Part shown: in pieces, positions 1-30,039 of the stretch
Layout of the letters: every line of letters starts with the position of its first letter
Numbering within the stretch: position 1 is the stretch's first letter
Origin: Candidatus Falkowbacteria bacterium CG10_big_fil_rev_8_21_14_0_10_43_10
GTDB lineage: Bacteria > Patescibacteriota > Patescibacteriia > Patescibacteriales > XYC2-FULL-47-12
Length of the DNA: 31,686 bases
NCBI GenBank assembly: GCA_002773655.1
Contig: PFAR01000024.1
Coordinates: forward strand, 25,986-57,671
Reading direction: 5' to 3'
The notes under the pieces: generated by a model
Told to the model about the DNA's origin: nothing
The model's input: only the letters and a program-made list of their open reading frames with translations
The model's database searches: none
Position numbers and translations under genes: made by a program

Positions 1-180
1 CTATTTTATTTTATTTTTCGCCTGCGCATCCGGCTGGCTAAAATGGAAAACGACATCACAAAAATTGTTAGGGAGATTGCAGTAGGGAAAAAAGATAAAA
101 TATAATCCAAATCCACAAATTTCATCCAAATATTACAAATGTAATAAATAATTTGTGGATTTGGATTATATAAAGAGGCT

Positions 181-3349: not shown

Positions 3350-3458
3350 AATTTTCAATGATCAATTTTCATTTAATTTACAATTTTCAATTTCCAAAAT
3401 GTTTGGACATTGAAAATTAAAATATTGAAAATTGATTGAAAATTGGAAATTGAAAATT
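3350..3458. repeat. Empty inverted heptamer-array element (TTTTCAA arms / TTGAAAA arms)
   Basis: Perfect 16-bp IR AATTTTCAATTTCCAA (3382-97) / TTGGAAATTGAAAATT (3443-58) and 11-bp IR at 3350-60 / 3408-18. Confidence 0.8.
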
Positions 3459-20959: not shown

Positions 20960-21391
20960 ATGACAGAAGAAAAGAAAGAAGAAACTGCAACTGAGGAAAA
21001 AAGCGCAGTAGTTCCAGAAAAATTTAAATCTCTGGTTGAAGAGATTGAAAAAATGTCCGTTTTGGATTTAGCTGAATTAGTTAAAATCCTGGAAGACAAA
21101 TTCGGCGTATCAGCCGCGGCTCCAGCCATGATGATGAGCGCTATGCCTGGCGCGGTCGGACAGGTCGCCGCCGAAGAGAAAACTGAGTTTAATGTTGAAT
21201 TAACCGCCGTCGGCGGCAACAAAATCGCGGTCATTAAAGTGGTAAAAGAAATTACCGGTTTGGGCTTAAAAGAAGCCAAGGATTTAGTTGACGGCGCCCC
21301 CAAAATAATAAAAGAAAGCGTAAAGAAAGAAGAAGCGGAAGCGATGAAGAAAAAAATTGAAGATGCCGGAGGACAAGTGACTTTGAAGTAA
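20960..21391 (+). CDS. rplL: 50S ribosomal protein L7/L12
   Basis: [55 protein letters not shown]. Confidence 0.98.
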
Positions 21392-21403
21392 GAAACACAA
21401 AAT

Positions 21404-21450
21404 AAATAAAATATAGGGGCAGCGCAATGCGCTGCCCCTATATTTTATTT
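21404..21450. terminator. Bidirectional terminator, 22-bp perfect stem, GTAG-REP-like core
   Basis: AAATAAAATATAGGGGCAGCGC-AAT-GCGCTGCCCCTATATTTTATTT between convergent genes. Confidence 0.85.
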
Positions 21451-23706
21451 CAAATGTTTTATTTCTATTTCATAAATAGAGGCGCCGCTTAATATTATAA
21501 TTTTCTTTTCCTCTTCTATTACGGCGAAGTCGCGCCAGTCGCTTAATCCCTCAATTCGGTACTGCATAATAAATTTTCCATTTTTGTCAAATACCAATAA
21601 ACGCTTTCCCGCCGGCTCTAATATGTAAATATACCCATTTTCATTTTCGCCGGTCATTTTAAACTTAGCAGGAGCGGTTAAAGGCGGATTAACCGGAGCG
21701 AATTCAAATTCGTTGGAATAGCCGGAAAGCATCTTTAATATCCGGCCGTCATTCAACAGGGCGTATATATATCCGTCAATGGTAAAACTGACGGCATTTT
21801 TTATGTCCAGATCTTCTTTAATCCAGGCGTCCCGCGATTGGTAGTCGCGCGCGTAGCGGAAAATATTATTTCTGGCCGCTGACATTACATACAGCCGTCC
21901 GTTGTAAAAGGCAATGTCGGTTATTTCACCAGGGTTTTCGGTTATCGCGCTATTGATCTCGGAAATATTTAGGTCTTTGTCAACAATCAGCCCGCCCGAG
22001 GCGGAGATGAAAACAGCTTTACCGTCGCTTGATTTCGCGCCGTAGCTTATGTTTTTAGCATCCTTGTTTAATAGTCCGGCTGTATTATCGGCCAAGTTAA
22101 ATTGGTAAAGGGATTTATTGTCAGCGTCGGAGGCGATAATATCCCGGCCTAAGGGAATAATCAACCGGGGGTTGGCCGCCGAGTTAAGCTGGGAAAAATT
22201 AGCCAGTTCCTTGGGATTTTTTATATCAACCACATGGCTTATTTTATCCGTTTGCTCTCTGTTAACGGCGGTGAAATTATCAATTAAATTCTGGTCAATT
22301 TTTTTAAAGTTTTTAAGCTGATCAATAATCCCGCTGGTTTCAACGATAAGCTCCTGAGCCTTGACTTCATTATTATAAAGCAGGCTGGCTTCAATTTGAT
22401 TCTGTTTTTGCTTAACAAGCTGAATCAGCTCTTCATAGCTTTGCTGTTCGGCCTGCTGGGTTTTATTGCGGGTAACCTGGATAATGCCGTAAGCAAACAG
22501 GCCGGAGCAGACAACAAAAGTCATTAGCCAGACTTTGCTGATGGCGGAAAGATTAATAAACCAATGGAAACTTTTCAGCGCTGATGTTTTTACCGCCAGC
22601 CAGATATTTTTTACTGCCCGGAAAGATTTAAGAGATAACTCTTTCGGATGCGACAAAAGGCGGGTAAAGTAAATAATGATATTAAAGGCATAGGTAAAAA
22701 AATTTTTTCCATGGTAGCGCAAGCGTGTTAGGAAATTAAGGCGGTGTTTTTTAACCAGAAAGATTTTATCCCTGATGGCGGTAGTAATTTTTTTCTCCCG
22801 CGAGCCGGTTATTTTAGCGCCGATTTTTTTAAGGGCCGCCAGGTAGCGATTAGCGCTGATAATTCCCACCGGCGACAGGTATTTTTCCGTTTCATTTTCC
22901 GTTTCATTCATTAATTCCAGCGAGTTGCTGGCAGTTACATTTACCTGCATCCTGGGGATTGAACGTTTAACATGGGGAGTGGTGGAGTTTTTTATAATAA
23001 TGGCCAAAAAAGTCACATAGCTGTTGATTTTATGCAGCTGGCCTTTTAAATATTCAATAGCGCTTGTCGGCGGAAGGGTAGTGATAATTTTTGTTAAATG
23101 CCGGTTGTTGATATACTCCGGCAGTATTTCATTCGCGAACACGAGATATCCTTCGGACGGAATTTTCCCTTCGGTAATGTTGGAAAATATTTTATTAAGC
23201 TGGATTTTCGCCGGCCCTTCCTGGTCGTTAATAGCTGTGATTTTATATATTTTTTTGTCTTCCTCTTCTTCTGTTTTGTCATGATAAATCAGCATCGCCT
23301 TTATTTTTCCGGCCGAACTGAAGACCAGGTCGTTTTTATACACCACCCCCACTATAATGTTAAGCAGTTTAGGGTCTATTTTTACCTTTTCTTTTTTTAA
23401 AAAAGCTTCAAACTCCGCGTTGGTTTTGGCCAGCGCGGTTTCAAATATTTCTCCGATTCTGATTGTTCCCATTTTTTCCCGCAAGCTTATTTTTTCATTA
23501 TGGTAATAGTGAGCCGGCAGGGCGGAGATGAAAAAATTTATTATTTTCAAGGCGATCGGTTTTTTGTTTTCTATTTCGGCGATAAAAAACAATTTGCCCA
23601 GGAGAGCCTCTTGGTCGATTTGGGGATTGCTGATGAATATGTCGGCCGTGCTGGACGACTTCCCGGAAGCGGGAGACAGGATTAAACGCGATATTTTGTA
23701 ATACAT
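21445..23706 (-). CDS. Membrane protein: degenerate PP2C-like N-domain, TM, coiled segment, beta-propeller
   Basis: FSSAGKIKAML and YLVFANEIL echo the PP2C VGDSRAYL / LLLCSDGL motifs; TM near residue 390; propeller-like repeats (DIAFYNGRLYVM, FTIDGYIYAL, YIYILEP..KRLLVFDK). Confidence 0.7.
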   Translation of the reverse strand: MYYKISRLILSPASGKSSSTADIFISNPQIDQEALLGKLFFIAEIENKKPIALKIINFFISALPAHYYHNEKISLREKMGTIRIGEIFETALAKTNAEFEAFLKKEKVKIDPKLLNIIVGVVYKNDLVFSSAGKIKAMLIYHDKTEEEEDKKIYKITAINDQEGPAKIQLNKIFSNITEGKIPSEGYLVFANEILPEYINNRHLTKIITTLPPTSAIEYLKGQLHKINSYVTFLAIIIKNSTTPHVKRSIPRMQVNVTASNSLELMNETENETEKYLSPVGIISANRYLAALKKIGAKITGSREKKITTAIRDKIFLVKKHRLNFLTRLRYHGKNFFTYAFNIIIYFTRLLSHPKELSLKSFRAVKNIWLAVKTSALKSFHWFINLSAISKVWLMTFVVCSGLFAYGIIQVTRNKTQQAEQQSYEELIQLVKQKQNQIEASLLYNNEVKAQELIVETSGIIDQLKNFKKIDQNLIDNFTAVNREQTDKISHVVDIKNPKELANFSQLNSAANPRLIIPLGRDIIASDADNKSLYQFNLADNTAGLLNKDAKNISYGAKSSDGKAVFISASGGLIVDKDLNISEINSAITENPGEITDIAFYNGRLYVMSAARNNIFRYARDYQSRDAWIKEDLDIKNAVSFTIDGYIYALLNDGRILKMLSGYSNEFEFAPVNPPLTAPAKFKMTGENENGYIYILEPAGKRLLVFDKNGKFIMQYRIEGLSDWRDFAVIEEEKKIIILSGASIYEIEIKHLK

Positions 23707-23864
23707 GGGGATAGGTTATATTTGCGCTAAACTATATAAATATATTATAATATAAAAGCAGTGGTTAGTACAATCAGTTCTGTGTTGATATGTGGCTGAT
23801 AAGGAGAGTGGAACTGTTGATTCCATAGTTTATATTACAATATTACGATAAATAAATATAAAAT

Positions 23865-24446
23865 ATGCTGACAAAACTTTTTTCATCTCAAGTGAGGGTT
23901 AAAATATTAAAATTTTTAATAATGCACAGCGAACAGAGCTTTAGCGCCGGAGAAATTGCCGGCGGAACCGGCTCCGCTATCCGCAGCGTAAATAAGGAAA
24001 TCGACAAGCTCCTAGAGGCGGGAGCGGTGATTGAAGAGCTGCAGACCATCCAAGTCAATAAAAAAGCCGTCAAGGTAAAACATTACCGCGTCAATAATAA
24101 CTTTGTAATTTTTGACGAAGTAAAAAATCTTTTCATTAAAATGCAGACGCTGGATTCAGAAGATTTCCGCGAAAAGATGAAAAAGAGCGGCAAGATTAAT
24201 TATGTTGTTTTAACGGGCAACTTCGTCGGCAGCAAGGAATCCGCGATAGACTTGCTTATTGTCGGCGGCATCAGCCATAAAAATTGTGAAGGAATAGTCA
24301 AGAGTTTTGAAAAAAAGATCGGCTGGGAAATAAACTGGACGCTGATGGACCTGCCGGAATACGACTACCGGCAAAAGATTGGCGACATGTTTCTCTATGA
24401 ATTAATGAAAAGCCGGAAGATAGAGTTAATCAGTAAATTCGTTTGA
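23865..24446 (+). CDS. Winged-HTH regulator fused to a degenerate nucleotidyltransferase-like domain
   Basis: LFSSQVRVKIL..F, EIA...G..IRSVNKEIDKL (wHTH); VVLTGNF...SAIDLLIVG (MNT-like). Confidence 0.78.
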   Translation: MLTKLFSSQVRVKILKFLIMHSEQSFSAGEIAGGTGSAIRSVNKEIDKLLEAGAVIEELQTIQVNKKAVKVKHYRVNNNFVIFDEVKNLFIKMQTLDSEDFREKMKKSGKINYVVLTGNFVGSKESAIDLLIVGGISHKNCEGIVKSFEKKIGWEINWTLMDLPEYDYRQKIGDMFLYELMKSRKIELISKFV

Positions 24447-24448
24447 TT

Positions 24449-24940
24449 ACTACAAATTACAAATTAAGTACAAATATACAAATAATTTTTTATGTTGCTT
24501 TATCAAAAGGAGGGTGTTGAGGTTATTTACCCAAGACTAAGCTATAAAATTGTTGGAATATTATTTGATGTATTTAATGAGTTGGGCTACGGTTATCAGG
24601 AAAAATTTTATGAGCGGGCGACAGAAAAATATTTAATAAAAAGAAATATAAATTATCAAAAACAAAAGGGGCATAAAGTTTATATAAATAGGGAATTTAT
24701 CGGTATATATTATTTAGACTTTTTGATAGATGATAAGATTATTTTAGAGCTGAAGAAAGGCAATTATTTTCCTAAGCAAAATATAGATCAAGTTAATGCT
24801 TATTTGCATGCCACCGGTTTAAAATTAGGGATACTGGCAAATTTTACCTCTACCGGAGTTAAATATAAACGTTTATTAAATATTAAATAGATTATAAAAT
24901 TGCAGATTTGTATATTTGTATACAATTTGTAATTTGTAGT
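24449..24940 (+). mobile_element. Putative mobile element: GxxExxY gene bounded by 35-bp inverted TACAAAT-array repeats
   Basis: Left arm 24449-83 and right arm 24906-40 are reverse complements at 32 of 35 positions. Confidence 0.7.
24492..24890 (+). CDS. GxxExxY protein (PD-(D/E)XK nuclease superfamily, PDDEXK_3-like)
   Basis: LSYKIVG, ELGYGYQEKFY (GxxExxY), LDFLIDDKIILELK (D...ExK), QVNAYL, GILANF. Confidence 0.92.
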   Translation: MLLYQKEGVEVIYPRLSYKIVGILFDVFNELGYGYQEKFYERATEKYLIKRNINYQKQKGHKVYINREFIGIYYLDFLIDDKIILELKKGNYFPKQNIDQVNAYLHATGLKLGILANFTSTGVKYKRLLNIK

Positions 24941-24949
24941 GATAATTAT

Positions 24950-25279
24950 ATGAAAAATCAACAAGAAGTTATCCAGCAAATCGCCGATCAAATAATCGCC
25001 GCCGCGGGAGCCGATAAGATGCCGGAGGGGGCGAAAGCGGCTTTCCGGGAAAATCTGGAGGCGCAGATTATGCGGCGACTGGGCTTGATTATTATCAAAA
25101 ATTTAGACGAGGAAGGCTTAAAAGCTTATGAAAAACTAACTGAAGCCGCTCCGGTTCCCTCCGTCGGCGAGATGCAGAGCTTTCTTGAGCAGTATCTTCC
25201 GGATTATGAGGAAAAAGTAAAAGCGGGTATGGATGAATTTATGGCGGAAATCGCCGGGCATCTTAATAAAAAGAGTTAA
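24950..25279 (+). CDS. Small acidic helical protein, DUF5663-like (start MKNQQ at 24950)
   Basis: G.DKMP..AK..F.E.LE.QI..RL..II..NL.EE...AYEKL...FLEQYLPDYEE pattern recalled for CPR DUF5663 proteins. Confidence 0.7.
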   Translation: MKNQQEVIQQIADQIIAAAGADKMPEGAKAAFRENLEAQIMRRLGLIIIKNLDEEGLKAYEKLTEAAPVPSVGEMQSFLEQYLPDYEEKVKAGMDEFMAEIAGHLNKKS

Positions 25280-25287
25280 GTTATTTT

Positions 25288-28200
25288 ATGTTAGAGCCAA
25301 AAATGCCACAATCACCTAGCCATGACGACGATGAAGGCAAACAGAAAGAAATAAAAGAGGCTGAAGAAGCTTTGGATCAAAATGAAATAGACCAAATTTT
25401 AAACCAGCAGCCTTTTGTGGAGCAAGACCAATGGCGGCCGTCGGCGGGAGATGTAAAAGATGCCGCTGCTGGCAATGAATCCAGCGAAAATTCGGTAGAG
25501 GGCGAGGAAGTCCCTGCTCCGGAAGATAAAGACGCTCCAGAGGAAGAAAAAAATGGAGGAAGCGAGACGGAATTTTCAAGGGAAGAAGATGAAGAAGCTA
25601 AGCAAATATTAAATAAAATAGCCTTGGAAGCGGGGATTTTTTATGTTAATAAAACCCCTATTACGCAAAAATGGATAGATGAAAAAATAGAAGAATTAGC
25701 AGAGTTGCCGGTTGATATAGATTTTTTTATAGAAGATTTAATAAATAATGAAATGAGCATTAATTATGATAAATATATTATAAAAGAAGGAGCGAAAGAA
25801 ACAGTTGATGAACACGCAGACGCTAAAAATTTAGAAGAAAAAATTTCCAGCGGAGAAACAGATGAAGAAACAGCGAAGGAAACCCCAACTGATGACGAAA
25901 ATAAAGATGAAGAGGAGACAGAGGAAAATAGAGAGAATGAAGATAAGGGAAAGGGAAAGAAAATGCGGCAAGACATTAACGACCTGCGCGCTATTTTAAA
26001 TACTGCGATTCTTGAGAGTAATAAAGACAAACTGGCGGAAAGTATTAAAGAAAGGACGGGAGAGATTGCTAAATTAGTGGAAGCGGAGAATATTGAAAAT
26101 AACGGAGAGTTAAAAAATTTGATTGAGGAATTATTAAAAGTTTTATCGGGAGAAGACGAAAAAAAGACAGATAATATAAATAAGAAAATTTCAGAGATAA
26201 CCGGATTATCGGCAGATGAGATTACGGAAATTTACCAAATTCAGGAAGAGGTAATCGCGAGAGAAGCGGAGGGCAAAGTAAATAAAGGGAAATTTTGGAA
26301 AGGGCTGGCGAGCACCGCCGGCTATATTGGCGCGGCCGGTTTAATCGGGTTTGCCAGCGGAGGCATGGGATTAATCGCGGCCGGAACGGCGAAAATAGGC
26401 TTTGCCGGCTTAGCCGGATTTAGGATTGCCGAGCGTTCATACCGGGGAAAAAAGCACGCCCAGAAGGTAGAGCAGGAGATTAATAATATAAAAAAATCAA
26501 TTCAAGAAAATGAAGCAAGAAAAAAAAGCCTGTTGGCGAATTTTTCCGGAGAAATGGCTACGAGAATCCAGGGAATGATAAATAAATTAGGCGAGAAAGA
26601 GGCGCCGGATGATACTGGTGATGAAAAAGAAACAAATGGCGCAAGATTTACCAGCGCTTACGAATATATTAATAGCAACTCAAACTTTGAGAAGTATAAC
26701 GAAGAAGAAAAAACATCTTTGTTGAGGGCGATAGACGCGTTAATTGCGGTTGATTATAGCAATAACAAAGTAGAAAAGGAAGTAGTGGAGAAAAATTCAA
26801 GCTGGTTTGGCCGGGCGCTGAAAAAGGTTGACGATTTTCTTACTAGCGACAAGACGTTCTTCAATCGGATGTTAAAGGGCGGAAATACCGCCGGGCAGGA
26901 GTTTAAAACCGCCTCTATTTTCGCGGCCGCTGGCATCGCGGCCCGGGAAGTCCCGGTAATCGGCGAGATTCTGCGCGGTTATGGCGGAATGAAGCTGGGC
27001 GAGATGGGAGCTTCTTTTTATAGCCGGAGAAAGGATGAAATTGTATCTGCCGAAGATATAAAAAAAATGCGGGAAGATCTTGCGGTACCAAAAGAAGAAG
27101 AAGACGACGAATTAACGGAATTAACAAAAGATTTTGACGCGGTAGAGAGCGCGGAACTTAATAGTTTAGTAAATAAAGCCAGGGCGCAGCTGCTTGACGC
27201 TAATTTTAGAAAGAATTTTCCTGATGAATATAATAAATTAAGGGTTGTTATTGATAAAATTGAGCAGGAAAAAATTATAGAGGCAGTTAATGAAACGAAA
27301 GCAAAAGAAGAATTTATAGAAGAGGACTGGACAGAAGAGAGTGAAATTTTTAAAGATATAAACAGTTATTTGCAAGAAAGAGACAGAGATGTACAAGCAG
27401 AGCTGGATAAGCGTTTAAGAAAAGAAAGAAATAAAACAGCCGCCGCGCATTTAGGGCGCGTTGCCGGTATGGCCGCGGGCGTTCTATCAGATGATTTGGT
27501 CCGGGGTTTGGCGGATATGCTGGAACATAAAGAAACAGCTGGCATCGGCGCAGCGGGACATGAATCTGTTTCAAATGGACAAGGATCTAACGCAGGAGAA
27601 CAATCGCTGGACGTTTCGCCTGACACTCCAGAATCGCCGCAGCCACCGGTTGAACCGCCTGCCCCGGATATTTTGCCTGAAAATAAAGGCGGTTTGGAAC
27701 ATCCGGAACACGAAGTCAGTAAAATCCACCGCGCGCTTTGGTATGACAATGATGATCCGAGCAAGCCGGTGGGAAATGAAAAGCGGTTTTTGCCCGGCGG
27801 AGTGCAACGGACTGGTTTTGATAAAGAAGGGGACATTATTTTTGATATAAGTAAAATGACTCCTGACGGTTCGGCGCACGGCGGGAATAATATTAATGTC
27901 CCTTATTTATTAAAACAAGACGGAAACGGGGACAGATTATGCGATAAATTGCGCCTGCTTATTACCGTGGATGGAGACAGGGACAGCGAGGTAATAGAGG
28001 TTCCGGTTGATACTGACGGAAAAATTACTATTCCCGCAGGTAGCGATCTGGCGGAAAAGCTTTTTGCCAAAGGGCCTAACGGGCAGGCGGTTTTTAAGGG
28101 CGCGTTTTTAGAGATTGCGAAAGTAAATGAGGGAAAAGACGGAGCGCGGAATGTTGAAATTATTGCCACGCATGTAGGAAATAAAACCATTAATGAAGAA

Positions 28201-30039
28201 ACTATAAAGAGCTTATTGCAGCCGAAAGTTGAAGAAGAAAGTACGCCCTCCTCCGCTGAAGCTACGGAGGGTGAAAAGTCTGCCCGTCCCGCTTCACAGA
28301 GCGAGGCCGGGGAAGTACGAATTAACGAAGATAGCGGTCAACAGGAGAAGGTTGCAAAGGGAGGCGGCGCGGCAGAAAGCAAGGTTGAAATCAGCGGAAA
28401 AAACGCGAGAGTTAACGGCGTGGAGTTTGAACCTAAAGATTTAGGCTTATTAAGGATTAATGAAAGCGTGCATATCAATAATGTATCCAGCCAGATTGCC
28501 GGCCAGTTTAAAAACGGAGAACAATTATTCCAAGTAGAAAATAACGGGCAGGTCAGCTACGCCCTGGGAACAGTTGATGATGGTGAATTTAAAGTAATTC
28601 AGCCCGATTTTATCGGCACGGGAAATGCGGAAGCTGTGCTGGACGCGGACAACAAAATTAATGTCGAATCGGGAACATGGGGCGCGAAAGTGGAGTCATA
28701 TGAAGCCGAATTGGATCAGATGAAGAGCTATTTGTCTGGCGCGGATGTAAAAGACCCGTTTCAATTTATGAAACAGGCGGGCTTTGATAATTATGATTTT
28801 GGCCGTTTGGAAACATTAATAAGAAACGGGATAACTAACCCGGCAGACGCGCATACTGCCTTGGAAATTGCCCAAAGCAGCGGAGCGAAGTTAAACCAGA
28901 TAGCGGAGCATTATTATATCGCCTCGCCGGTGGCGAAAAAATTGGGCGAAGATAATTCCGGCCTGATAAAAAATTTCATTGATTTTTTGCCCAAAGAAAA
29001 GAAGCATGAGATTGTAATAAATGAATTCTTTGCTAAAAATAATATAGATTACGCGGATAAAGTCGCCTGCAACGCGAGCAGCTCGGGAACAAAAATGGAA
29101 GTAGTTACCTATAATTTTCTGGATGACAGCGGAAAAACAAATGCTTTTGTGCGGATAATGCCGGATAAAATTGAGATATCAGGAGACGGAGACGTGGTGG
29201 ACGGCAATGACCATCCAATTGGTGATTTGGGGAAAATTTTAGCAGATCCGAGAGGATATTTGGAAAAGCATGAGGCTGGAATTTCTTTGGCTGAAAGCGC
29301 GGCGGCTCCGGAAACAAACTCTATCGGATTAAATTCGGGCGATATTTTAAGATACCCCGCCGCCGGGGGCCCGGTCATAAAAATAGGAGAGGCAGGCCCG
29401 GATGGAAAAATAAACTGTGTTTTTCAATTTGGCAGGAAGGAAATAAACACGGAATTAGTCCCCAAGGGAGAAAATATATATGAATATAAAGGCGAGGATG
29501 GCAGTATAGAGGCGTTAAAATTGGAGCCAGGCAAAAAATTCAGTTTTATTAACGATTATAAAGGGGCTGGCGGGCAGACAAACGAGTCTAAACAATTAGT
29601 GGATAATACGATAGCGGATATTAACAGCAATAATTTTAATAACCAGCTTACCGAAGCGCAGAAAAATCAGCTTGCCGCGGAATTGCCGGAAATGGGAAAA
29701 GAGATGTTCGGCGGCGTGATAGATAATAGTAGTTCGCGGCAGTCCGCTTTAATGCGTTTAATGATTAATCCGAATAATACCGACGCGCGCGAGGATTTAT
29801 TATATGAGCAAAGCGGCGATACCGTATTATCCCGCCTAGATGCTGTTAAGGATGTCGCGGTAAATAAAGAAAGCGGTCGGCGTCTGGTTGATATTGTTTA
29901 CCAGTTAAAGGGCGGGAAAGAAGAGCATCTTTATATCGGCGCGGGAAAAATCGGCAACAGCCTTAACAGCTTAGAAAATTACTCTATGGAAAATTTAGAT
30001 AAGTATTTAAAAGACATTCCGGCACGAATTAAACAATAA
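25288..30039 (+). CDS. Giant orphan protein (1583 aa): acidic N-terminus, Gly/Ala-rich hydrophobic hairpins, beta-rich C-terminal domains
   Basis: 4.75-kb uninterrupted ORF; no signal peptide or named domain recognised. Confidence 0.88.
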   Translation: MLEPKMPQSPSHDDDEGKQKEIKEAEEALDQNEIDQILNQQPFVEQDQWRPSAGDVKDAAAGNESSENSVEGEEVPAPEDKDAPEEEKNGGSETEFSREEDEEAKQILNKIALEAGIFYVNKTPITQKWIDEKIEELAELPVDIDFFIEDLINNEMSINYDKYIIKEGAKETVDEHADAKNLEEKISSGETDEETAKETPTDDENKDEEETEENRENEDKGKGKKMRQDINDLRAILNTAILESNKDKLAESIKERTGEIAKLVEAENIENNGELKNLIEELLKVLSGEDEKKTDNINKKISEITGLSADEITEIYQIQEEVIAREAEGKVNKGKFWKGLASTAGYIGAAGLIGFASGGMGLIAAGTAKIGFAGLAGFRIAERSYRGKKHAQKVEQEINNIKKSIQENEARKKSLLANFSGEMATRIQGMINKLGEKEAPDDTGDEKETNGARFTSAYEYINSNSNFEKYNEEEKTSLLRAIDALIAVDYSNNKVEKEVVEKNSSWFGRALKKVDDFLTSDKTFFNRMLKGGNTAGQEFKTASIFAAAGIAAREVPVIGEILRGYGGMKLGEMGASFYSRRKDEIVSAEDIKKMREDLAVPKEEEDDELTELTKDFDAVESAELNSLVNKARAQLLDANFRKNFPDEYNKLRVVIDKIEQEKIIEAVNETKAKEEFIEEDWTEESEIFKDINSYLQERDRDVQAELDKRLRKERNKTAAAHLGRVAGMAAGVLSDDLVRGLADMLEHKETAGIGAAGHESVSNGQGSNAGEQSLDVSPDTPESPQPPVEPPAPDILPENKGGLEHPEHEVSKIHRALWYDNDDPSKPVGNEKRFLPGGVQRTGFDKEGDIIFDISKMTPDGSAHGGNNINVPYLLKQDGNGDRLCDKLRLLITVDGDRDSEVIEVPVDTDGKITIPAGSDLAEKLFAKGPNGQAVFKGAFLEIAKVNEGKDGARNVEIIATHVGNKTINEETIKSLLQPKVEEESTPSSAEATEGEKSARPASQSEAGEVRINEDSGQQEKVAKGGGAAESKVEISGKNARVNGVEFEPKDLGLLRINESVHINNVSSQIAGQFKNGEQLFQVENNGQVSYALGTVDDGEFKVIQPDFIGTGNAEAVLDADNKINVESGTWGAKVESYEAELDQMKSYLSGADVKDPFQFMKQAGFDNYDFGRLETLIRNGITNPADAHTALEIAQSSGAKLNQIAEHYYIASPVAKKLGEDNSGLIKNFIDFLPKEKKHEIVINEFFAKNNIDYADKVACNASSSGTKMEVVTYNFLDDSGKTNAFVRIMPDKIEISGDGDVVDGNDHPIGDLGKILADPRGYLEKHEAGISLAESAAAPETNSIGLNSGDILRYPAAGGPVIKIGEAGPDGKINCVFQFGRKEINTELVPKGENIYEYKGEDGSIEALKLEPGKKFSFINDYKGAGGQTNESKQLVDNTIADINSNNFNNQLTEAQKNQLAAELPEMGKEMFGGVIDNSSSRQSALMRLMINPNNTDAREDLLYEQSGDTVLSRLDAVKDVAVNKESGRRLVDIVYQLKGGKEEHLYIGAGKIGNSLNSLENYSMENLDKYLKDIPARIKQ

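Follow-up and report, generated by a model that had tools for sequence, protein, structure and literature searches.

Why should a small nuclease gene sit by itself between two inverted arrays of a heptamer? The question is raised by a stretch of 31,686 nucleotides from Candidatus Falkowbacteria bacterium CG10_big_fil_rev_8_21_14_0_10_43_10 (hereafter the window), in which a gene of the GxxExxY family is bracketed by two arms built from TACAAAT units. The window covers positions 25986 to 57671 of contig C54 in a 0.9-Mb, 54-contig assembly (G000; 42.6% GC, 84% complete), which we compared with 40 relatives from the same family or order (G001 to G040; surveyed loci carry L numbers). The locus proved to belong to a family of cassettes, each with two inverted arms of four (T/C)ACNAAT units and a GxxExxY gene in the loop, that moved during evolution. 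On balance, and with some reserve, we are inclined to see in it a mobile hairpin cassette that would be transcribed by read-through and processed by RNase III, and whose nuclease would act on its own heptamer arrays.

The two arms (24449-24483 and 24906-24940) were reverse complementary at 32 of 35 nt, exactly as an original prediction from the same letters had it, and all three mismatches fell within the 4-nt arm center (TAAG versus TGTA). Extended outward to 24446-24483 and 24906-24943, the arms reached 38 nt at 89% and formed the top inverted repeat of the 31.7-kb window. Each arm carried four TACAAAT units at offsets 0, 7, 18, and 26, so that 8 of the window's 13 copies of this heptamer lay inside the two arms, and the 132-amino-acid open reading frame (ORF) was the sole gene between them. 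Its position between the stop codon of a putative regulator gene (24446) and the start of a DUF5663-like gene (24950), its confinement with no other gene between TACAAAT-built arms, and the absence of an unambiguous target-site duplication (flanks GATT and GATA) had all been described correctly; ORF calls and domain matches agreed on the position. Metagenome gene callers dispute the start of the DUF5663 gene, giving either 123 amino acids (from a TTG at 24908, inside the right arm) or 109 amino acids (from the ATG at 24950); the TTG start is probably an ORF-calling artifact.

A chance inverted repeat would be the simplest account, since the region consists of AT-rich, low-complexity intergenic DNA and the genome is rich in short repeats. 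We regard it as refuted. The ungapped inverted-repeat score of the gene's flanks was 28, compared with a maximum of 15 in 2,000 composition shuffles (mean, 7.8; standard deviation, 1.1) and of 12.5 at 1,916 positions of the same geometry elsewhere in the window, and the architecture recurred at more than 80 independent loci, including some in genomes with 59 to 64% GC. One part of the original prediction did fail: the empty arrays elsewhere in the window, proposed as nonautonomous derivatives of the element, have different units (for example, at 100-171 and 3350-3458), and no second TACAAAT array was found in the 31.7 kb.

What does the cassette carry? The enclosed protein is a member of the PD-(D/E)XK superfamily, with E37, D76, E86, and K88 as predicted catalytic-type residues. 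It matched PF13366 (PDDEXK_3; E = 4.8e-26; 91.9 bits against a cutoff of 22) and TIGR04256 (GxxExxY; E = 3.1e-26; 92 bits against a cutoff of 35) and no further Pfam or NCBIfam family. Residues E37, D76, K88, Q100, Y104, F118, and R127 were invariant in 21 relatives of the protein, E86 was at least 90% conserved, and an AlphaFold2 model (pLDDT, 91.7) had a minimal PD-(D/E)XK fold. Profile matches, catalytic signature, and fold model thus bear out the superfamily assignment made earlier. A fold search with the model returned the Cas4 protein SSO0001 (E = 3.5e-5), lambda exonuclease, Hjc, RecU, a splicing endonuclease, and the catalytic domain of I-Bth0305I, which are generic PD-(D/E)XK neighbors and do not discriminate the substrate. 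By sequence, the only match in the PDB was T7 endonuclease I (E = 0.48), too weak to be of use. The function of PF13366 is listed as "Unknown" (PMC3424549). The window protein matched 4,074 clusters of the GxxExxY family at 50% identity (E <= 1e-3). The gene is under purifying selection, with dN/dS (ratio of nonsynonymous to synonymous divergence) values in the sister genus of 0.13 for an orthologue pair and 0.15 for a paralogue pair (paralogue dS, 0.78). A value for the window gene against G003:C8 was discarded because an indel had been left unaligned. About 19 of the top 150 family representatives were tandem-fused double domains, which suggest a functional dimer; judging from these fusions, the nuclease probably acts as one. 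Two other roles were considered and rejected. As an antiphage defense system, the locus gave only a Cas4b match in PADLOC (E = 0.009), and as phage-borne cargo it had a single relative, at 28% identity, in 2.9 million viral contigs and none in PHROGs.

Does the packaging recur around other members of the family? We compared the 200 nt upstream of each gene with the reverse complement of the 200 nt downstream, using a cross-locus permutation null. GxxExxY genes were present in 22 of the 40 relatives (one to four each), and 24 of their 31 loci scored above the 95th percentile of the null (16 above the 99th). A survey of named metagenome-assembled genomes (MAGs; one genome per GTDB species, 80 further loci, 76 of them testable), which was seeded with eight close sequences and is biased toward the window subfamily, placed 59 of 76 loci above the 95th percentile and 39 above the 99th. 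Overall, roughly 80% of about 107 homologous genes were bracketed by inverted arms directly abutting the ORF. The bracketed loci span bacteria of the candidate phyla radiation (CPR), Bacteroidota, Planctomycetota (Scalindua and Brocadiaceae; anammox bacteria), Chloroflexota, Omnitrophota, WOR-1, and a Methanosarcinales archaeon; the Anaerolineae genomes among them are those with 59 to 64% GC. In this genome and in related ones, the flanks of GxxExxY genes are therefore enriched for inverted arrays above the null, contrary to the possibility, raised along with the original prediction, that they would not rise above an AT-rich background.

The arms themselves are remarkably uniform in plan. Their unit was nearly everywhere (T/C)AC(G/A/T)AAT, exactly four units were present in 73 of 111 arms, and the modal spacing of 7/11/8 was that of the window (typical values being about 7 to 8, 10 to 12, and 8 to 9 nt). 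The units had the same polarity relative to the dyad in 58 of 59 classifiable cassettes. We rejected this polarity (58:1) as a marker of gene orientation: a palindromic arm pair is the same on both strands, so that the ratio shows a fixed polarity toward the dyad alone. In two paralogous cassettes the arms were identical at 38 of 38 nt while the genes had diverged to a dS of 0.78, and the arms must therefore be far more constrained than silent sites. One G004 cassette had arms identical to those at a locus in a Candidatus Falkowbacteria MAG. Among eight aligned TACAAAT arms in G000, 31 of 35 positions were invariant and the 4-nt center varied freely. Unit conservation next to a free center, arm types that are specific to the cargo, and the co-occurrence of gene and arms suggest that the nuclease probably acts on its own heptamer arrays.

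Is the unit fixed in its place? Homologous cassettes adjoined unrelated genes (gyrB, ftsI-like, ligA/gatC, and pheT-like), and in four within-genus comparisons one genome had the cassette, arms included, where the orthologous site of others lacked it (Table 1), two of these sites being truly empty. Since the arms were absent wherever the gene was absent, arms and gene form a unit that is gained or lost together. Both fixed synteny and a lack of empty sites are thereby contradicted, and of the earlier claim of a mobile selfish unit, the part that stands is that of one conserved unit that has moved. The proteins of an Anaerolineae and a Methanosarcinales cassette were 82% identical and had near-identical arms, which points to recent transfer of the cassette between domains, unless a contig was mis-binned.

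Table 1. Positions of the window cassette and its neighbors (window coordinates), of related hairpins and arrays in G000, and of the cassettes compared with orthologous sites (genome and contig)
Feature	Position	Strand	Description
Left arm	24449..24483		AC-TACAAAT-TACAAAT-N4(TAAG)-TACAAAT-A-TACAAAT, 2+2 layout; inverted repeat extends to 24446
Cargo gene	24492..24890	+	132-aa GxxExxY protein, minimal PD-(D/E)XK nuclease fold; PF13366, TIGR04256
Right arm	24906..24940		Reverse complement of left arm, center TACA; repeat extends to 24943
Upstream host gene	23865..24446	+	193 aa, weak HTH (helix-turn-helix)/ArsR-like; stop 24444-24446, 2 nt before left arm
Downstream host gene	24950..25279	+	DUF5663 (1.1e-6), 109 aa from ATG 24950; 9 nt past right arm
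Gene-less TACAAAT hairpin	G000 C42:19179-19242		Arms abut directly
Gene-less TACAAAT hairpin	G000 C44:8305-8374		4-nt loop
Gene-less TACAAAT hairpin	G000 C54:5785-5868		18-nt loop; outside window
Inverted arrays around 131-aa receiver-domain gene	G000 C40:13112-13735		Fourth-highest flank inverted-repeat score in genome
Inverted arrays around hisS	G000 C30:13016-14414		Array search
Inverted arrays around rplD-rplW-rplB (S10 ribosomal-protein cluster)	G000 C37:509-2568		Array search
Cassette compared with G006:C19	G009:C39		Flanks 92-93% identical; two other gene-less hairpins in its place
Cassette compared with G008 and G010	G003:C20		Each with a different GC-rich hairpin of ~120 nt
Cassette compared with G017	G040:C12		ligA stop abuts gatC start; truly empty site
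Cassette compared with three congeners	G040:C9		21, 32, and 79 nt at site, without such arms

The same arms also occurred in great number without a gene. A strict three-unit ACNAAT pattern was found 0 to 72 times per relative (24 arms in G000), with reversed-pattern controls near zero, and the hits were mostly plus/minus pairs 35 to 110 nt apart, i.e., gene-less hairpins. These outnumbered the genes 5- to 35-fold. The Methanosarcinales MAG, for example, had 72 arms and three GxxExxY genes, one of them flanked by these arms, and a Bacteroidota MAG had 25 arms and eight genes. In G000, degenerate and solo TACAAAT arms accompanied three gene-less TACAAAT hairpins, which folded as single-stranded DNA with z scores of -9 to -12; their loops held no visible remnant of a GxxExxY gene, and no direct repeat was seen around the three copies.

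Gene-less copies could mean that the gene is a free-standing homing endonuclease, which would cut a preexisting palindrome and be copied into the dyad by repair, the gene-less palindromes being its unoccupied targets. The gene does lie exactly at the dyad, palindromes with identical arms do occur without it (with the arms of the C42 copy abutting), and the same arms hold different cargo in G005 and G000. PD-(D/E)XK homing endonucleases exist in free-standing and in intron-borne form, I-Ssp6803I being one example, and the I-Bth0305I catalytic domain was among the fold-search matches. The cassette resembles them in having a small restriction-fold nuclease gene at the center of a symmetric site and in its selfish-element logic; it differs in having no intron or intein, and cleavage by GxxExxY is hypothetical. 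The two accounts part at the sites without a cassette. All four within-genus sites that lacked the cassette also lacked a palindrome of the same unit, being empty or occupied by unrelated hairpins, so the arms arrive with the gene. In addition, the gene's own genome retains intact palindromes, as would not be expected if homing into them were efficient, and an arm family usually has only one gene, although its potential targets number in the tens. We consider homing quite improbable.

A classical insertion sequence (IS) with MITEs (miniature inverted-repeat transposable elements) is a further candidate. GxxExxY would then serve as transposase and the arms as its terminal inverted repeats, and the gene-less hairpins would be MITEs that arose through internal deletion. 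Terminal inverted repeats with many short gene-less copies sharing the same ends, together with presence/absence polymorphism, fit this account, and TnsA of Tn7 demonstrates that a PD-(D/E)XK fold can take part in transposition. Against it, no target-site duplication was seen at any junction examined, the loops of the gene-less copies are free of gene remnants, a minimal nuclease of some 130 amino acids has no strand-transfer domain, and no DDE, HUH, serine, or tyrosine recombinase or integrase was recognized in or beside the cassettes. Cassettes with a four-helix-bundle gene, described below, do entirely without a nuclease. The IS/MITE account strikes us as still less probable than homing.

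We then return to the mobile hairpin cassette and to its transcript. The genes next to the cassettes were co-oriented with the cargo in 99 of 106 cases upstream and 102 of 102 downstream, compared with 138 of 177 background pairs (78%). The window had no excess of promoters or terminators over shuffles, and the stretch from the left arm to the start codon held no such site. From this co-orientation and lack of motifs we infer read-through transcription. In the predicted fold of a transcript covering 24430-24960 (minimum free energy [MFE], -109.8 kcal/mol; z = -3.97), the two arms paired over about 36 bp, interrupted by an internal loop where the N4 centers meet, and enclosed the whole gene in both the MFE and the centroid fold. 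RNase III is encoded in the genome (G000 C3:2669-3328; TIGR02191, 227 bits). No Rfam family matched 23700-25400 at E <= 1. We rejected a model in which the arms serve as an RNA stem only: mismatch transitions were compatible with G-U pairing in 72 cases and incompatible in 57 (P = 0.22), and 60% of mismatches were transversions. A mere stem would not need the conserved unit sequence that is seen across phyla, and this argues for recognition of the units over simple pairing.

The cargo is not always a nuclease. Four-helix-bundle genes of the TIGR02436 family ("23S IVS protein," after the intervening sequences [IVSs] of 23S rRNA) were present in 34 of 41 relatives, with up to 15 in a genome of about 1 Mb, more than 1% of all genes, and 23 of 30 tested loci were bracketed by inverted arrays. 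Their arms mostly consisted of simple heptamer tandems with different units (TAGCTTG, TGAATNA, and GTAAGAC, for example); the 2+2 ACNAAT arms occurred at 58 of 74 GxxExxY loci and at about 2 of 30 four-helix-bundle loci (the latter judged by eye, not scored). Different arm units around the two gene families indicate that the arm type tracks the cargo family. Six relatives with neither gene also had no ACNAAT-type arm. In G000, three GxxExxY genes and one four-helix-bundle gene all lay between inverted arrays, and the unit differed from gene to gene (TACAAAT, TGCAAAT, ACGGAT, and CTAAAAT). The best three flank inverted-repeat scores among 740 G000 ORFs of 90 to 200 amino acids belonged to the window gene, the four-helix-bundle gene (C16), and a GxxExxY gene on C34; the arms of the third GxxExxY gene (C6) were inverted but gapped.

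Several observations weigh against a mobile cassette whose nuclease acts on its arrays. No target-site duplication was seen at the filled-versus-empty junctions, and no known recombinase in or beside the cassettes. ACNAAT arms were found in 21 of 22 genomes with GxxExxY and in 8 of 19 without it, a comparison in which kin genomes are not independent and which is uncorrected for phylogeny; the genomes with arms and no GxxExxY gene include G024 (99% complete, 24 arms), G030 (100%, 15 arms), G033 (100%, 9 arms), and G035 (16 arms). G000 itself retains three intact TACAAAT palindromes without a gene alongside the cassette. The same packaging surrounds the unrelated four-helix-bundle genes, so mobility cannot depend on nuclease cargo in general. 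In G000, hisS, rplD-rplW-rplB, and the receiver-domain gene likewise lie between inverted arrays that share a unit family (Table 1); these may be further cargo types or independent hairpin pairs in neighboring spacers. No empty allele was seen in the population, where 12 of 12 metagenome contigs with an identical protein, from at least eight samples, were occupied. At the regulator-DUF5663 junction, finally, the sister-genus genome G005 has TACAAAT arms around an ordinary small host ORF.

That junction, which the orthologues of the upstream gene in G002, G004, G005, and G010 define, had been proposed as a place to look for empty sites. It was occupied by the cassette in all 12 metagenome contigs with the identical protein and in three with the identical regulator, and several contigs broke at the arms. 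In G002 and G010 the junction has no arms and holds a small ORF of about 57 to 60 amino acids. No homologue of the small ORF of G002, G005, and G010 was found in G000 by tblastn. The junction looks like a case of cargo replacement between arms. In two independent cases, at L007 (G005:C1, 2205-2590) and at G000 C27:9093-9170, a GC-rich hairpin was inserted exactly at the 4-nt center of a TACAAAT arm, and the arm center may be a hotspot of breakage or insertion. G005 also has nine tandem AACACGC heptamers beside its left arm.

Some of these points speak for a rival account, in which the arrays are intergenic punctuation of the host, serving RNA processing or stability, translation control, or as substitutes for terminators, and the gene merely lies between two of them. 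Periodic arrays of at least three units were present in 70 of the 551 intergenic spacers of G000 (about 13%), compared with 4.4 in shuffles and 4 in coding controls, and they occupied spacers that separate co-directional genes. The arrays around hisS, rplDWB, the receiver-domain gene, and the small ORF of G005, the arrays in genomes without GxxExxY, and the fixation of the element in the sampled population all fit punctuation. It does not account for arms that are gained and lost together with the gene at orthologous sites, truly empty ones included, or for arms that directly abut the ORF in about 80% of some 107 loci from many phyla, for an arm architecture specific to the cargo, or for the fact that the top three of 740 flank scores fell on these gene families. 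Moreover, orthologous spacers of congeners held different hairpin families despite flanks 88 to 96% identical, which indicates turnover and not conserved regulation. Punctuation is unlikely in our judgment, if less so than homing.

How might the mobile cassette work? Inserted in sense orientation into a short spacer flanked by two co-directional host genes, it would be transcribed by read-through, and its arms would pair in the transcript into the predicted stem of about 36 bp. RNase III may cut this stem, by analogy with 23S rRNA IVSs, which would make the insertion tolerable and set the cargo mRNA free. A nuclease dimer would then read the heptamer units symmetrically on both arms and promote DNA breakage or recombination at the arrays. 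Such breakage could spread the arms with or without the gene, in the manner of REPINs (hairpin-forming doublets of repetitive extragenic palindromic [REP] sequences), and allow exchange of cargo between identical arms.

Comparison with known systems places the cassette between several of them. Integron cassettes are promoterless, co-oriented small ORFs accompanied by a hairpin-forming, imperfect inverted repeat, and their cargo is exchanged at a fixed site. GxxExxY cassettes differ in that they have no integrase or attI, have repeats on both sides of the ORF, and are dispersed singly. Intergenic heptamer repeats are known from cyanobacteria as short tandemly repeated repetitive (STRR) sequences. 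TAACTGA repeats occur in Beggiatoaceae, Cyanobacteria, and Bacteroidetes (PMC4679880) and inverted GGGAATC pairs in Xanthomonas (PMC4692102). These repeats (STRR, TAACTGA, and GGGAATC) share with our arrays the period of 7, a strictly intergenic location, frequent convergent pairs, and a patchy distribution suggestive of horizontal transfer, and the arms of GxxExxY cassettes L018 and L019 are built of ACTGAA-type units. As far as they were searched, PMC4679880 and PMC4692102 contain no link between the repeats and nuclease or four-helix-bundle genes, while the arrays of GxxExxY cassettes bracket a specific gene family.

The closest anatomy is that of the 23S rRNA IVSs of Coxiella and Leptospira. 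The Coxiella IVS is 428 nt long, with a 28-bp terminal stem, an ORF for an S23p four-helix-bundle protein in the loop, and three to four tandem GACAGAT heptamers, the first of which is cut at its start by RNase III; the literature calls it a selfish element whose origin is unknown, and an earlier proposal made the ORF a mobility factor (PMC4990558). Like the cassettes, IVSs are elements of 400 to 750 nt in which terminal inverted repeats pair into a long stem, the loop holds a small ORF, and the stem region contains tandem heptamers (GxxExxY cassette L115 has the Coxiella unit GACAGAT). IVSs lie within a host transcript, as the cassette would on the read-through argument; both are sporadic and horizontally transferred, and the protein family of the IVSs, TIGR02436, is the very one encoded by the four-helix-bundle cassettes of these genomes. 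In contrast to an IVS, the window cassette lies between protein-coding genes and not in a 16S or 23S rRNA helix, has no Rfam match, carries a PD-(D/E)XK nuclease, and has fixed four-unit 2+2 arms and many gene-less copies; RNase III excision is experimental for IVSs and proposed for the cassette.

REPIN-RAYT systems (Bertels and Rainey 2011, PMC3116915; RAYT, REP-associated tyrosine transposase) are similar in dispersal. A single-copy gene stands between inverted copies of a short repeat, which also lies scattered in intergenic DNA as tens of hairpin doublets per genome. The repeat sequence differs from one gene lineage to the next, and the repeats occur mostly where the gene is present. RAYTs, however, are HUH/Y1 (IS200-like) transposases, whereas the cassette protein belongs to PF13366 and not to Y1_Tnp, and REPs are GC-rich palindromes, whereas cassette arms consist of four heptamer units. 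Inheritance of RAYTs is mainly vertical, unlike that of the cassettes, for which presence/absence among congeners and similarity across phyla indicate transfer. The cassette is thus both IVS-like and REPIN-like, and the chance that we are dealing with a new class of mobile element is substantial. A wider proposal, that GxxExxY and, in parallel, S23p-type four-helix-bundle proteins are the cognate trans-acting factors of an unrecognized class of prokaryotic mobile DNA, the heptamer-array hairpin elements, we put forward as possible and with more doubt than belief. We found no prior description of the association between GxxExxY and arrays, which is weak evidence because most subscription journals and curated family notes lay outside the search; none of the papers within the search that use the term GxxExxY concerned repeats.

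Other repeats of the window and genome deserve mention in their own right. A perfect 22-nt inverted repeat with CCAAAT/ACAAAT-type units and a 28-nt spacer (window 100-171) lies directly upstream of the ORF at 181-1236 and has longer relatives at G000 C14:2236-2346 and C27:10562-10668. The hairpin at 3350-3458, between co-directional ORFs, has 38-nt arms of AATTTTC/GAAAATT heptamers and a 33-nt loop; its family has at least seven copies in G000 (C5, C10, C27, C31, and C47), and the assembly, at 84% completeness, yielded no gene associated with it. A perfect 23-nt palindrome with a GC core and a 1-nt spacer (21404-21450), at the 3' ends of ORFs ending at 21391 (plus strand) and 21445 (minus strand), looks like a bidirectional terminator and not a heptamer array. 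An unrelated palindromic repeat, GC-rich and with the core TGTCATTCCCGCGAAAGCGGGAATC, occurs about 25 times in G000, mostly as close inverted pairs (REPIN-like). Sites outside the window include C54:4550-4631, C4:4288-4350, and C16:18242-18305; a copy replaces the GxxExxY cassette at the orthologous G008 site and contains GGGAATC, the inverted-pair heptamer of Xanthomonas. Locus L126 (G006:C19, 2153-2440) has two gene-less hairpins with units ATCCGT and ATTCGN, a similar loop (GCTATTTT...TATGGCAC), and a unit polarity opposite to that of GxxExxY arms, which suggests a further type of element. Two large ORFs are kept beside the cassette in metagenome contigs: one of 753 amino acids (21445-23706, minus strand), with no significant Pfam match, and a very acidic one of 1,583 amino acids (25288-30039, plus strand), for which the precomputed table of an identical metagenome contig lists no Pfam family.

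GxxExxY and four-helix-bundle proteins are among the commonest unexplained small proteins, and the origin and mobility of rRNA IVSs have been an open question since 1990. What ties these proteins, the rRNA IVSs, and the heptamer repeats together is one recurrent anatomy, in which inverted heptamer arrays form a hairpin with a small gene in its loop. For CPR genomes there is a practical side as well, as the arrays break metagenome assemblies and cause wrong start calls such as the TTG at 24908. The pairing of protein and array is directly testable with a 132-amino-acid protein and a 35-nt array. If the wider proposal is right, heptamer-array hairpin elements would spread both as cassettes with a gene and, in far greater number, as hairpins without one, among the bacterial phyla and also to archaea; they would be the source of 23S rRNA IVSs and of intergenic heptamer repeats (STRR, TAACTGA, and GGGAATC), and two very large families of "hypothetical proteins" would gain a function.

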